64,000 nucleotides of DNA, taken from contig CAZSPU010000002.1 of assembly GCA_964608555.1 (NCBI GenBank), forward strand, positions 1,395 through 65,394. Reading direction: 5' to 3'. Positions within the stretch are counted from its first letter, which is position 1; each line of letters begins with the position of its first letter. The stretch comes from an uncultured Candidatus Saccharibacteria bacterium (GTDB lineage: Bacteria; Patescibacteriota; Saccharimonadia; Saccharimonadales; Saccharimonadaceae). The notes under the pieces are model-generated. The model did no database searches, was not told where the DNA came from, and saw only the letters and a list, made by a program, of their open reading frames with translations. Made by a program: the position numbers and the translations under genes. Positions 392-33,036 of the stretch are shown here, in pieces.

Positions 392-599
392 TCCATTACC
401 ATTATCCTTACCGTACTAGGCAACGGAGAGGAATGCCGTACCAAGCATTTTCATACCAACTAGGATTTACTAAGTTAGGGTTAGAACCAAAATGGTAAAC
501 AAAACCAGGACGCGAACCCGTACTAGACGACCAATCGCCAGTCCACCACCCAGCACTGACAATGGCACCATTTGCATGTATGACATCACTACGCACGAA
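392..599 (-). repeat. Variable cassette copy 1 (FVRS...PLRCLVR* family)
   Basis: Reverse complement starts TTCGTGCGTAGTG (587-599) and ends CCTCTCCGTTGCCTAGTACGGTAAGGATAATGGTAATGGA. 64 open codons: FVRSDVIHANG...WSSS...GIPLRCLVR*. Confidence 0.9.
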
Positions 600-603
600 A
601 TAA

Positions 604-815
604 CATTACCATTATCTCTATCGTACTGGGCAGCGGAGAGGCATACCACACCAGTGGGGATGACTGTAAGAGCTATATACTGAGCCCATTCTATAGTTGA
701 TATCATAAACTTTGTTGGATGCGTTCTGAGGGTCAGACCGATTAGACCATAGAGACCCGTTAATTCCTACCCATTCAGCGAAGCCTGACGAGCGTATACT
801 TTCACTACGCACGAA
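604..815 (-). repeat. Variable cassette copy 2 (tandem with copy 1)
   Basis: 5' arm at 803-815. Slightly degenerate 3' arm CCTCTCCGCTGCCCAGTACGATAGAGATAATGGTAATG. 66 open codons: FVRSESIR...GMPLRCPVR*. Confidence 0.9.
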
Positions 816-869
816 ATAACTCAAGAAATTATTACGCAGCGAGAAATTTATGCTACAATGAGAGGAGTT

Positions 870-9081: not shown

Positions 9082-9199
9082 AACAATATTATATCATAAA
9101 ACTTCGGCTTAAGAAATAATGCGAACGGCATCGGCTCAGGGATCGCCGCTTCCATCGCTGCGCGCCAGAAATAGCTGCGTATTCTCGGACGTCTTTAGC

Positions 9200-9419
9200 T
9201 TCGTGCGTAGTGGAACTGTAAGTTATGGCGATTTTATCTTCGGAGCTGGCATTTATGGTTATGTTTGGACTTTGCATACCCTCTTGGATTCCGAATTTCA
9301 TGATACCTACTATTTAGGTTTCGATCCAAGTCAAACTTTTCTGCACGGTAACAGCTTTAAAAGGCGTTATCATGGCCATTCTCTCCGCTGCTTAGTACGG
9401 TAAGGATAATGGTAATGGA
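9200..9419 (+). repeat. Variable cassette copy 3
   Basis: TTCGTGCGTAGTG...TCTCTCCGCTGCTTAGTACGGTAAGGATAATGGTAATGGA; 68 open codons FVRSGTVSYG...HGHSLRCLVR*. Confidence 0.9.
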
Positions 9420-9530: not shown

Positions 9531-9533
9531 GTC

Positions 9534-9744
9534 TTCGTGCGTAGTGCAGATATTTTTGTGGAAGGTATGACTGGAGATACTATAATTGGCTATTTTTGGA
9601 CTGCTAATGCTGAATTTAGCTCCGAGTTTAATAATTCTGATAGAGTGTTTTGGAATCAGAATACAAGTTATGTAAGTGCTACATGGCAACGTTACGTTGG
9701 TTATCCTCTCCGCTGCCTAGTACGGTAGGGATAATGGTAATGGA
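9534..9744 (+). repeat. Variable cassette copy 4
   Basis: Both arms match consensus; 65 open codons FVRSADIF...[10 protein letters not shown]. Confidence 0.9.
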
Positions 9745-9955: not shown

Positions 9956-9987
9956 CTGCCTAGTACGGTAGGGATAATGGTAATGAA
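9956..9987 (+). repeat. Cassette 3' arm only (5'-truncated copy 5)
   Basis: CTGCCTAGTACGGTAGGGATAATGGTAATGAA, with no 5' arm or core upstream; abuts the recO stop codon. Confidence 0.85.
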
Positions 9988-16763: not shown

Positions 16764-16907
16764 GATGATATAATATTCCCGTTATGTCAAATTGAAAATG
16801 ACTACAAGCTTCACTGGATATATAATCTTCTGCCGCTTCGCGTCAGAAATGCCTGCTCATTCTCGGAAAAGAGAACAAGATTCTCTTTTCTCTCAGATAT
16901 TTGCCAC

Positions 16908-17118
16908 TTCGTGCGTAGTGGCGAAGTTTGGTATGCTGCTTATGTAGGGTGGAATAACTGTGCAAATATTTGGTCGTCAAGTGCTGAAAATGGCAACGCT
17001 TTCTTAAATAGTTTCTTTTTAAGTTTTGATGAGTTAAATATTAAGCCGTCCAACGTTCTCGTTCGTCTTGATGGTCGTCCTCTCCGCTGCCTAGTACGGT
17101 AGGGATAATGGTAATGGA
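16908..17118 (+). repeat. Variable cassette copy 6
   Basis: Both arms match consensus; 65 open codons FVRSGEVW...DGRPLRCLVR*; preceded by a perfect 10-bp hairpin (16866-16890). Confidence 0.9.
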
Positions 17119-24338: not shown

Positions 24339-24446
24339 AAAAAATAACTCCTTTGTTTGTACTATTTTACTACATTTTTCTTTCTCTAGCAAGCTTGGTT
24401 TTGATAGCGTAAAATCGTGCAAAATAAATATTTTACTGCTACCGTC

Positions 24447-24660
24447 TTCGTGCGTAGTGATGTAGTAAATCCAGGCGGCTTAATTTATAATGTTGGATTA
24501 TGGAGCAACTTATGGTCGTCGCGCGCCAATACTTGGGCTGGACTTCAACACGCCCTCATTTTATCATTTAATACTTTAAATGTTGACTCCTCTGCCAATG
24601 GCGAACGCCATCACGGCCGTCCTCTCCACTGTCTAGTACGGTAGGGATAATGATAATGGA
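24447..24660 (+). repeat. Variable cassette copy 7 (first of tandem triplet)
   Basis: 5' arm perfect; 3' arm CCTCTCCACTGTCTAGTACGGTAGGGATAATGATAATGGA; 66 open codons. Confidence 0.9.
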
Positions 24661-24667
24661 TATATCC

Positions 24668-24887
24668 TTCGTGCGTAGTGGGCTTGTTCATGTCAACCAT
24701 TTCATTCATTGGCCTGGATCTAATGGTTTTTATTGGACATCTCGTGCTGACGATTCTGGATTTCAGCGAAGTTTTAATTTTACGTTTGCTATATCAGGTG
24801 TAGACCCATTCAATAGTTATGGTAATGGCGACCGTTCCTTCGGCTTTCCTCTTCGCTGCCTAGTACGGTAGGGATAATGGTAATGAA
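24668..24887 (+). repeat. Variable cassette copy 8 (second of triplet)
   Basis: 5' arm perfect; 68 open codons FVRSGLVH...FGFPLRCLVR*. Confidence 0.9.
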
Positions 24888-24907
24888 TGATGCAGAACAA
24901 ACAACTC

Positions 24908-25124
24908 TTCGTGCGTAGTGATGTTGTTAATGCGAGCGGGCAAGTTAGTTCATACGCGGGCAACAATGGCTTAGTGTGGTCGTCGCGCGCTGGAACTAGT
25001 AGTGCCTTTCAAACTAGTTTTGATTTACCTTTTAACGCTACGGATGCTTATCCATCTAACAGTGGTGATCGTTGGCATGGCATGTCTCTCCGCTGCCTAG
25101 TACGGTAGGGATAATGGTAATGGA
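24908..25124 (+). repeat. Variable cassette copy 9 (third of triplet)
   Basis: 5' arm perfect; 67 open codons FVRSDVVN...HGMSLRCLVR*. Confidence 0.9.
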
Positions 25125-27579: not shown

Positions 27580-30462
27580 TCACAACCCCAAAACCTGTTT
27601 CAAGTATTTGCCGGTTGGGGTATTGGAGTCCTTGGCGAGTTGCTCGGGCGTGCCCTGTGCCATGACGCGACCGCCTTTTTGACCGCCCTCTGGGCCCATA
27701 TCAATCACCCAGTCAGCGCTCTTAATGACGTGTAAATTATGCTCAATAATAATCATCGAATTGCCACCGTCGACGAGACGGCCGAGAATTTCGAGCAACC
27801 TTCTGACGTCGTCAGTATGCAAGCCGGTGGTCGGCTCATCGAGAATATAGAGAGTCTTGCCGGTACTGCGGCGCGCGAGCTCGGTGGCCAATTTGATGCG
27901 TTGCGCTTCGCCGCCAGAGAAGGTAGTAGCCGGCTGGCCAAGTTTAACATAACCGAGTCCAACTTCTTGGATAGTCTTGAGCTTGGGCGCGATCGAAGGA
28001 ATGCTAGCAAAAAACTCTACCGCTTCGTCGATCGTCATATTGAGAACTTCGGAAATATCCTTACCCTTATATTTCACCTCGAGAGCTTCGTGATTATAGC
28101 GTTTGCCGTGACAAGTCGGACAGGTCACATAAACATCTGGCAAGAAGTGCATTTCGATTTTGTTGACGCCGTCGCCTTGACAAGCTTCGCAGCGGCCGCC
28201 TTTGATATTAAAACTAAAACGCCCAGCCTTATACCCGCGTAGCTCGGCTTCGGGCTGCTTCGCAAAAAGTTCGCGGATTTGATTAAAAACGCCGGTATAA
28301 GTGGCCGCATTACTACGAGGCGTGCGCCCGATCGGTGACTGATCGATGACGATGGCCTTATCGAGAAATTCGATGCCATCAATCCGCTCGTGCAGACCAG
28401 CGACTGTCTGAGCCCGATGCAAACGTGCCAGTAATTCATTGGCCAGAATCTCATTCACCAAAGTCGACTTACCGCTACCAGAAACGCCAGAAACTACCGT
28501 CATGACACCCAGCGGGAAATGCACATCGATATTTTTAAGATTATTTTCGCGCGCACCCACAACTACTAATTCTTGGTCTTTTTTGGGCTTGCGGCGTTTC
28601 GCCGGCACCGGAATCGTCTTGCGACCAGAAAGATACTGCCCGGTAATAGAATCAGGATCGTTTGCTACTTCTTCGGGCGTACCTGCCGCCACTAAACGCC
28701 CACCGTTTTTACCGGCGCCTGGCCCGATATCCACGATAAAATCAGCCTCACACATCGTATCTTCGTCGTGCTCAACCACCAGCACGGTATTTTTGAGATC
28801 GCGCAAATGCTTGAGCGTAGCAATTAACTTATCGTTATCGCGTTGATGCAAACCGATTGACGGCTCATCCAAGACATAGAGTACACCTTGCAAGCCCGAA
28901 CCAATCTGCGTCGCCAGCCGAATTCGCTGCGCTTCGCCGCCCGACAAAGTATTAGCGGCGCGCCCCAGCTCGAGATAACCAAGCCCTACATCTTGCATGA
29001 ATTTGACGCGCTCACGAATTTCTTTGATAATTGGCTCGGCAATCAGAGCTTCGTTGTCGTTAAACTGGAGATCTTGATTGAGCACATCCAGAGTGGCATC
29101 GACGTCGAGATTACACATATCCATGATATTGAAACCGTGCACCGTCACCGCCAAGACCGCCGGCTGCAAACGTGCGCCGTGACAAGTCTGACACTCATGC
29201 ACCCGCATGAAACGCTCGATATCTTTGCGCACAAAATCGGAATCTGTCTCTTTATGGCGGCGCTCAAGCGTCGGAATGACACCTTCGTAAGTCGATTGAT
29301 AAGTCGCGCCATTACCCCATTTGCCATGTCCGCCAACCTTGACTTCGTACTTCTCTTTGCCGGTACCGTATAATAATATCTGCAGATTTTCTTCGGAAAG
29401 CTGCCCGATCGGCGTATGCACCGAAAATCCATGCCGCGTCGCGACAGCGTCGAGCCGTTTCAGCCACCAGGATTCTTGAGTAACGCGATTAAACGGCCGG
29501 ATGCCGCCTTCGGCAATGGTCAGATTGGGGTTCAAAATTAGATCTGGATCAATTTCCAGGCGCGTGCCTAGCCCTGTACAAGTCGGACAGGCTCCCTGCG
29601 GCGCATTAAAACTAAACAGCCGCGGCTCTAACTCTGGAATCAGCTCGTCGGGATGCAATTCACAGGCATAACGCTGAGAAAAAGTAAAAATTTCGGTCTG
29701 GTTTTCGCCGATATTCTTCTCGCCAACTGAGGTCGAATTGTCATTAATTCTCAATAATTTAATAATGCCCTGCCCCAGTTCCAAGGCTTGTTCGATCGAT
29801 CCGGAAATGCGACTCAATAAATCTGGCGACAATACAAACCGATCCACAACAATCTCGATGTCGTGACGATCATTTTTGTTGAGGTCGGGAAATTCATCGA
29901 GCGCATAGACAATTCCATCGATGCGGACACGCGAAAAGCCTTTTGCTTGATATTGCTCGGAAACGTGCTGAAAACTTCCCTTTTTCTGGGAGACAATCGG
30001 CGCCAGCAGCATTAATTTGCTTCCGAGTGGCAATTTCATTACTTCGTTAATAATGTCTTCAACACTGCGACGCTGCACTTCACGATGACAAATCGGACAA
30101 TGCGGAACGCCAATGCGCGCAAACAGTAAGCGCAAATAATCATAAACTTCGGTCACAGTCGCAACGGTCGAACGCGGATTGCGACTAGTCGACTTCTGAT
30201 CAATTGAAATCGCCGGGCTCAAACCAGTAATACTATCGACGTCTGGCTTATCCATCACTCCCAAAAACATGCGCGCGTAACTTGACAAACTCTCGACATA
30301 GCGGCGCTGCCCTTCGGCGTAAATCGTATCGAAAGCCAAGCTCGACTTACCCGAGCCCGATAAACCAGTAATCACAACCAGTTTATCTCGCGGAATATCG
30401 ACGCTAAGATCTTTGAGATTATGTTGCCGCGCACCGCGGATTCGGAGAAAATTGTCATTCAT
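27580..30462 (-). CDS. uvrA: Excinuclease ABC subunit A
   Basis: [38 protein letters not shown], two ABC cassettes ([18 protein letters not shown]), Zn fingers. Confidence 0.98.
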
Positions 30463-30502
30463 TGCCGTATATTATACAGGTTTATGTTCGTTTAATCAAC
30501 CC

Positions 30503-30731
30503 TTCGTGCGTAGTGATAGGACTGAGAATATCGGTTTTCTTTATTCTGGACACACAGCTCACCTTTGGAGCAGTTATGCTAATTATGGTACACATTTTCA
30601 GGACAGTTTCAGTCTTAGCTTCAATCTTACTATCAGCACTTCAGACGTCTACCCCTCCAACAACTTCTACAACTACCGTTACTTCGGTTATCCTCTCCGC
30701 TGCCTAGTACGGTGGGGATAATGGTAATGGA
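30503..30731 (+). repeat. Variable cassette copy 10 (stop codon TAG changed to TGG)
   Basis: 5' arm perfect; 3' arm CCTCTCCGCTGCCTAGTACGGTGGGGATAATGGTAATGGA; FVRSDRTE...[13 protein letters not shown]. Confidence 0.9.
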
Positions 30732-30821
30732 TTATCTCATGAAATATCCCCCAGCGAAATGCTGGGGGTGGTAATAAAAGGAGGTGAAAAAATGATGTTG
30801 GCAAAAAAATAATAATAAGAC

Positions 30822-32896: not shown

Positions 32897-33036
32897 CCTC
32901 AGATACTTGGTACGGAGGTTTTGGGTTTCGCGGAGCTAATAATCTGCCTCCAGGTACTCAATACGGAGGGTTTAGATTTCACAGAACTAACAACTCCTCT
33001 TCAACTGCTCGGTCTGGAGGTTTTGGGTTTATGAGG
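32897..33036. repeat. Three degenerate ~51-bp tandem units, each with a CCTC...GGAGG hairpin
   Basis: GGAGG(T/G)TT at 32914, 32965 and 33016 (51-bp period); CCTC at 32897, 32947 and 32996. Confidence 0.55.

Follow-up and report, generated by a model that had tools for sequence, protein, structure and literature searches.

A genome of Ca. Nanosyncoccus (Saccharibacteria; 988,615 bp in 44 contigs, 95.6% complete) harbours hundreds of short cassettes that are likely to be gene-less copies of the variable region (VR) and 3' target arm of a DGR encoded in the same genome, in which case the abundance of NNY codons and the scarcity of Lys in their cores would be a partly eroded DGR footprint. The UvrA of this genome is 83–91% identical to those of animal-gut MAGs named Candidatus Saccharibacteria or Ca. 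Nanosyncoccus. The stretch of 64,000 nt that we analysed (henceforth the window) contains nine complete cassette copies and one remnant of a 3' arm:

394..600, minus strand, copy 1
604..816, minus strand, copy 2, with the most degenerate 3' arm (3 mismatches)
9199..9417, plus strand, copy 3
9533..9742, plus strand, copy 4
9960..9985, plus strand, cassette remnant consisting of a 3' arm only, without 5' arm
16907..17116, plus strand, copy 6
24446..24658, plus strand, copy 7, first member of a tandem triplet
24667..24885, plus strand, copy 8 (NNY 43/56)
24907..25122, plus strand, copy 9 (NNY 38/55)
30502..30729, plus strand, copy 10, with 5' arm CTTCGTGCGTAGTG, a 59-codon core and a 3' arm ending in ...CGCTGCCTAGTACGGTGGGGATAATGGTAATG

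The cassette unit is roughly 213 nt long (range 201–231 nt). In the window copies it opens with the 5' arm CTTCGTGCGTAGTG, which encodes F-V-R-S, followed by a hypervariable core of 52–59 codons and by a 3' arm that reads ...P-L-R-C-L-V-R-stop and extends about 16 nt beyond the stop (consensus CTAGTACGGTAGGGATAATGGTAATG). Both arms are short, 13 nt at the 5' side and about 45 nt at the 3' side. Copy 10 is flanked by two minus-strand ORFs, one of which is uvrA (start at 30462); TGG replaces its usual TAG stop, so that the frame continues to a TAA, and no usable start codon or SD was found for it. Genome-wide there are 283 3' arms and 284 5' arms; joined in pairs, they make up 270 cassettes amounting to 58 kb, or 5.9% of this reduced genome of about 1 Mb. 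They are dispersed over 114 intergenic loci, in arrays of up to seven. The frame is open to the canonical stop in 252 of the 270 (93%). An RNA gene or known RNA family was ruled out, as Rfam gave no match in the window, the template contig or the reverse transcriptase locus; a group II intron, considered for the GTGCG at the 5' arm, was ruled out by the 3-nt periodicity of the lengths and the protein-like conservation.

A preliminary description of the window had noted, from hand counts, a DGR-like excess of codons ending in C or T. Recounting reproduced these figures exactly (51/59 in copy 10, over 30503-30712, 43/56 in copy 8 and 38/55 in copy 9), together with the 3 Lys among the 492 core codons of the nine window copies; the NNY total of these copies is 354/492, or 0.72. 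Their first core codon is GNN in 9/9 cases, as had also been seen. This reflects a conserved Gly/Asp (the template codon is GGA), and the G-to-A change at its second position is not of the DGR type. Equally present are the differences at non-adenine sites and the in-frame indels that the same description had pointed out, the lengths of 263/270 cassettes being in register by threes. Compared with the genome background, the 13,754 core codons of the 252 intact cassettes have an NNY frequency of 0.710, against 0.560 in 515 long ORFs. Lys makes up 0.95% of the cores versus 5.97% of the background (0.16x), and Glu (0.31x), Gln (0.47x) and Met (0.42x) are depleted too. Trp, on the other hand, is 4.4x enriched, which is unexpected from a pure AAY-to-NNY process. 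At four-fold degenerate codons the frequency of a third-position pyrimidine (Y3) is 0.661 in the cores and 0.580 in the background, chiefly with T up and G down. The signature is real and far beyond chance; the NNY excess derives mostly from amino-acid composition, and the excess at four-fold sites is modest.

A composition of this kind might arise with no role for a DGR, by selection for the Tyr/Ser/Asn/Gly-rich binding loops of a lectin-like domain. The large share of amino-acid composition in the NNY excess, the modest difference at four-fold sites (0.66 vs 0.58) and the Trp enrichment go in that direction, as does a full-length, non-cassette paralogue on contig C11, which also has 0 Lys in 70 equivalent codons. 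Its NNY frequency is only 0.60, however, and in the cassettes the signal peaks exactly at the 12 AAY columns of the template, four-fold degenerate codons included, and decays with divergence from the template (see below). We regard this explanation as extremely unlikely.

The DGR itself is encoded in the genome, which carries both an intact DGR-type reverse transcriptase (RT) and an Asn-rich template (TR) that shares the 5' and 3' coding arms of the cassettes, so that the DGR link proposed earlier is borne out. The RT is an intact ORF (C6:1381-2577) with the motifs IGNLTSQ and YVDD. A tblastn search with the RT of a relative (G014) as query matched C6:1393-2565 at 65% identity; the protein scored 33 bits against PF00078 (cut-off 29.6), and its sole PDB match was 8ub7_A, 'Reverse transcriptase' (328 aa, E 2e-23). 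We take 8ub7 to be the Bordetella phage DGR enzyme. The Pfam RVT_1 (PF00078) search of the whole genome had returned no RT, a false negative. Divergent DGR RTs can escape such searches, and reports of 'no RT found' from Pfam in genomes of this kind should be rechecked by protein homology. A conserved 315-aa ORF, 47% identical to its G014 counterpart, stands directly upstream of the RT (both within C6:441-2577); it had no Pfam or NCBIfam match and no match to the Avd family.

The TR (C44:414-602, on a contig of 1,961 nt) is 189 nt long, with 43 A and 12 AAY codons. TR and cassettes have CGTGCGTAGTG and ...CCGCTGCCTAGT in common and diverge thereafter; a common GC-rich 3' segment of TR and VR, ...CCTCTCCGCTGCCTAGT, followed by divergence is a feature of target arms. 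A motif downstream of the TR has conserved counterparts in the TRs of G014, G016 and G078, genomes of three other species. In a search with the cassette profile the TR, which is also the centroid of this family, ranked at the top of 282 matches, and it alone lacked an arm of the VR type. The preliminary description had suggested looking for an AAC-rich copy next to an RT gene, and one Asn-rich TR does exist, but on C44, with the RT elsewhere, on C6.

To relate the cassettes to this template, 252 of them were codon-aligned with the TR, and its 12 AAY columns were compared with 19 other hypervariable columns. As would be expected from mutagenesis at template adenines, the AAY columns have an NNY frequency of 0.848, 6.1% of the excluded residues (K+Q+E+M+W) and a four-fold Y3 of 0.755; the corresponding values for the other hypervariable columns are 0.645, 16% and 0.614 (odds ratio 1.94). 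The footprint also depends on age. Among the 94 ungapped 213-nt cassettes, with divergence taken from non-A sites outside AAY codons to avoid circularity, NNY at the AAY columns falls over the divergence quartiles from 0.97 through 0.92 and 0.81 to 0.75 (Spearman -0.72), and the excluded residues at these columns climb from 1% to 10%. In the youngest quartile the mismatch to the TR is 0.48 and 0.38 at A sites versus 0.18 at non-A positions 1–2. The cassettes behave as an age series of former DGR products, in keeping with the long divergence that had been put forward as one of two possible origins.

None of the 270 cassettes is an adenine-only variant of the TR, which upholds the earlier statement that they are not current TR/VR pairs. 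The four closest to the TR have 15–19 A mismatches plus 14–17 at non-A sites (18 A and 14 non-A in the best), and the mode of non-A mismatches among the cassettes is 41–50. Copy 10 differs from the TR by 16 A and 35 non-A mismatches, plus a length difference of 15 nt. No Asn- or A-rich cassette was found in the genome. Some 60% of the hypervariable columns (19) are not AAY in the TR, and 8 of them lack adenine at codon positions 1–2; a large part of the diversity thus has a source other than adenine mutagenesis of the C44 template, and indels are common. As no cassette is adenine-only, the DGR authorship of these copies is read from the statistical footprint and not from a clean TR/VR pair.

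The other origin considered in the preliminary description, several parallel TR lineages, was not supported. The four cassettes closest to the TR do have 10 non-A differences from it in common, 8 of them with the same base, one TR goes with two types of 3' flank in G014, and in a genome that is 95.6% complete a further TR could be unassembled. Yet only one TR-type copy exists among 282 family members, and there are no clusters with shared non-A states and differing A sites; pairwise distances between cassettes are star-like, with a median of 0.55 at non-A sites. Using each cassette in turn as the template failed as well, the close pairs showing no A-bias. The 21 near-identical pairs are plain DNA duplicates, and 0/21 share non-A sites while differing at A sites. 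We consider several lineages very unlikely. The differences common to the four TR-closest cassettes suggest an earlier version of the same template, and, judging from the sequences, one template lineage suffices. Overall, the observation of the preliminary description is confirmed and its interpretation is partly supported.

In some relatives the same type of cassette is found in a much fresher state. G014 has an RT followed by an Asn-rich TR, and about twelve dispersed copies whose differences from this TR are mostly at its adenines (20/20, 20/22 and 21/23 of the mismatches), within a gradient from fresh adenine-only copies to drifted ones with many non-A changes. The fresh copies are gene-less, with stops just upstream of F-V-R-S-G, and one TR serves two 3' flank types. 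In G016, mismatches between TR and VR were not confined to adenines. On one G014 scaffold (L017:1889-3190, minus strand) a full-length member of the family is disrupted soon after ...YFVRGGG, by a stop or a break of the frame; the gene resumes in another frame to ...TVRCVAR and is immediately followed by a fresh gene-less cassette in convergent orientation. A split gene or inversion was rejected for a G014 scaffold gene, which continues past the frame break into its own non-cassette C-terminus.

The fresh gene-less cassettes of G014, whose differences from the TR are nearly confined to adenines, would fit with cassettes being live DGR targets, with complete target arms, that are still rewritten from the C44 template here, the assembly consensus showing old majority states. 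Also consistent with live targets are the arm layout, which resembles VR/IMH versus TR/IMH* (a common GC-rich ...CCGCTGCCTAG, then divergence), and the near invariance of the arms in about 283 copies. Against them stand the 0/270 adenine-only cassettes, the closest having 14 non-A mismatches, and the near-identical pairs, plain duplicates with no bias towards A. The saturated third positions imply that no overwriting has taken place for a long time, and no hairpin in or after the arm was significant (z -1.8, +1.0 and +0.8). Live targets are, in our opinion, unlikely in this genome.

Across the genus, the profile of the nine window cassettes matches 56/60 genomes, with 0 to more than 100 copies each. 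RTs are common, and an orthologue of the RT is present in 8/9 of the genomes that have at least 38 cassette matches. The exact 3' arm, present 284 times in this genome, was absent from 40 relatives and from the searched genome collection. The two nearest relatives, L045 (UvrA 91%) and L046 (UvrA 89%), are the genomes G077 and G078. They gave 21 matches (a 0.7-Mb genome) and at least 143 (a 1.1-Mb genome), showing that copy number swings widely among close species. About eight of the 21 matches in the smaller genome are inside genes of about 525 aa; those in the larger are mostly gene-less, and that genome has an Asn-rich TR of its own (L154:1501-1689) as well as a 3' arm that differs. Copy 10 is missing upstream of uvrA in both L045 and L046 (window 30440-30800 compared), the L046 match running to ...AATCAACCC, where a hairpin-like element follows at once. 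This gives copy 10 the look of a discrete insertion made in this lineage, and its lack at the same site in the nearest relatives indicates that cassettes come to occupy new loci over the time in which species diverge.

The cassettes are silent where they stand. A start codon with an SD-like motif precedes 13/270 of them, compared with 36% of long ORFs; no conserved sequence was found upstream of the 5' arm across cassettes, and the gaps inside arrays are spread evenly over all three frames. These three observations rule out translation in situ. The in-frame extension upstream has a median of 13 codons, and the cassettes are not in genes, unlike a VR at the 3' end of a target gene. They could accordingly be functionless relics, by-products of duplication or of mobile VR spread that are decaying and are open only because of their stop-poor NNY start. 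The lack of start signals, the dispersed intergenic positions, the DNA-level duplicates, the absence of copy 10 at the same site in close relatives and a DGR footprint that decays as if unprotected would all agree with relics.

Their coding features say otherwise. The open fraction is 93%, versus 0.2–0.5 in a conservative neutral simulation, that is, at most about 50% even with the observed stop-poor composition. Stops per core number 0.05 in frame against 1.55 and 5.26 in the other two frames, and of the 176 cassettes with lengths other than 213 nt, 169 are off by multiples of three. Codon positions 1–2 diverge about half as fast as position 3, framework Gly/Trp/Arg are retained while third positions are randomised, and the arms are invariant in a set that takes up 58 kb (5.9%) of a reduced 1-Mb genome. 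We hold functionless relics to be quite unlikely. In addition, 82 cassette pairs share mosaic tracts of at least 18 nt, and up to 89 nt, within otherwise different cores, and such shared exact tracts point to segmental exchange. The arms are almost invariant across about 283 copies while the cores are near saturation, and they differ between species, so that strong constraint or homogenisation of the arms is needed. We regard the reading of the cassettes as old, silent VR copies of the genome's own DGR, maintained by selection, as likely.

Protein-level selection on untranslated copies would imply that they are expressed at times. The full-length homologues are secreted proteins of about 520–570 aa in which the cassette segment corresponds to the C-terminal 65 residues or so. 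No gene ending in a cassette was found among the assembled contigs. A gene on C41, which encodes a signal peptide and more than 516 aa, runs off its contig after ...SGSFAYL, before the VR; it is the only full-length gene in the assembly that is able to end in a cassette, and hence a candidate expression site. The last 55 nt of this gene (C41:1-55) are identical to an internal stretch of a cassette on C14 (C14:4853-5251, minus strand), a longer one with 41 additional codons before the usual 5' arm (...LPTSGPDNEVSGSFAYL...) and, in front of these, a near-consensus promoter (GTGACA, 17 nt, TATAAT). Adjoining the RT operon and divergent from it, C6:1-188 (minus strand) is a 95% identical copy of the 5' part of this long cassette, and the start of C6 also matches the 55 nt of C41 at 95%. 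These stretches of C41, C14 and C6 form a three-way assembly junction.

The C11 paralogue mentioned above (C11:33894-35615; L129:895-2613) has its own non-cassette C-terminus (...FVRAG...VVRCLVQSQ). Its structural model (pLDDT 84.7) has an N-terminal domain resembling the beta sandwich of chaperone-usher pilins, with CfaB and CsuA/B as matches (TM to target about 0.5), and a search with the whole protein matched only this domain. The predicted pilin-like domain fits with an adhesin. The modelled C-terminal domain (pLDDT likewise 84.7) had no neighbour in the PDB (Foldseek), where a lectin fold had been sought; its best BFVD matches were two phage FISUMP proteins (E 0.017 and 0.43). Many homologues carry PF09603. 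For the full-length C41 and C11 proteins, the scores against the FISUMP profiles remain below threshold, at about 30 bits for TIGR02145 (cut-off 41.65) and about 19 bits for PF09603 (cut-off 33.9), and the cassettes alone had no Pfam match.

We propose that each cassette probably starts as an adenine-mutagenised copy of the C44 template or of an earlier version of it; at the AAY positions, this origin would yield NNY codons and leave out Lys, Gln, Glu and Met. Afterwards the cassettes would diverge independently, through ordinary substitutions and in-frame indels and, now and then, through the exchange of segments, leaving a footprint nearly perfect in the least diverged and near background in the most diverged. 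The most likely route to expression would be recombination into an expression gene, for which the C41 signal-peptide gene is the candidate, and the cassette set would then serve the episymbiont as a store of variants for a surface adhesin. A function as donor library, store or 'memory' is plausible. We put forward only tentatively, as something possible but rather doubtful, a two-tier system of this ultra-small episymbiont in which the DGR writes new binding-site variants that hundreds of silent, arm-bearing cassettes store and feed back, by recombination or re-homing, into one or a few adhesin genes. Several points count against the DGR reading as a whole, namely the 19 hypervariable columns that are not AAY (8 without adenine at positions 1–2), the Trp enrichment, the part of the NNY excess that is due to richness in Tyr/Asn/Ser/Phe/His and could be selected in binding surfaces, the invariant and species-differing arms next to saturated cores, for which simple ageing is insufficient, the location of RT and TR on different contigs, and the fact that no assembled expression gene ends in a cassette and that no transfer from a donor to an expression site was seen.

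DGRs are known as systems in which one template rewrites one or few genes. The arrangement found here resembles that of the Bordetella phage BPP-1 (brt, avd, TR and the VR of mtd with its IMH) in an RT with the [I/L]GxxxSQ motif, an AAY-rich TR with an NNY outcome at AAY codons, a VR at the C-terminal end of a ligand-binding domain, and a GC-rich 3' segment that TR and VR share before diverging. It differs in having about 283 VR-type copies instead of one, none of them in a gene and none adenine-only, in the putative accessory ORF of 315 aa without Avd-family match, in the lack of a significant hairpin after the arm, and in having RT and TR on separate contigs. Cellular DGRs with several or remote VRs have been described in Treponema denticola and Legionella, with up to about 15 targets in Thiohalocapsa (PMC10907252), and the phylum of our genome is known as DGR-rich, with a Patescibacteria DGR clade 2 (PMC8144416). 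As in these, one RT and TR would act in trans on dispersed targets. The remote VRs of those systems, however, are inside full-length target genes and number one to low double digits, whereas the copies described here are start-less fragments, in the hundreds, mostly long diverged from the TR.

Gene conversion from silent cassettes is well known from pilE/pilS of Neisseria, vlsE/vls of Borrelia and the vlhA pseudogene reservoir of Mycoplasma synoviae. With these the cassettes have in common that they are incomplete, lack a promoter and correspond to the variable portion of a single surface protein, with conserved flanks, variable cores, open frames and some mosaic tracts, and that they occupy a large share of a small genome; by their promoterless, partial nature, conserved flanks and open frames they qualify as silent cassettes. 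Unlike in those systems, no expression site with matching flanks is assembled here, the copies are spread over 114 loci instead of clustered, the arms are short, and the family is tied to mutagenesis by a reverse transcriptase, which is not known from those systems. In the literature searched we found no paper on gene-less or archived sets of DGR variable regions.

The cassettes keep their frames, framework residues and target arms, and offer a readable age series of past DGR outputs and a natural record of how DGR products drift. Relatives with fresh adenine-only cassettes mean that the genus presents contrasting stages. From the cassettes also comes the testable idea that hypermutation can be linked to a stored set of variants in bacteria whose life requires attachment to a host cell. 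Should the two-tier system be true, it would amount to a heritable, germline-like library coupled to a hypermutation engine, with species-specific arms and recurring across the genus Nanosyncoccus.

Two other repeat families were observed in the window. Family D2, of 45 nt, has 7 copies (window 2332, 6042, 7802, 27426, 31312, 33825 and 59973), and its motif makes a strong promoter in minus-strand orientation (TTGACA, 17 nt, and an extended -10 box like TGTGATAAT). Family D6 (window 32899-33030) consists of three 30-nt repeats at an exact spacing of 51 nt, between two minus-strand ORFs, and could be either a 17-residue protein repeat or a non-coding array.
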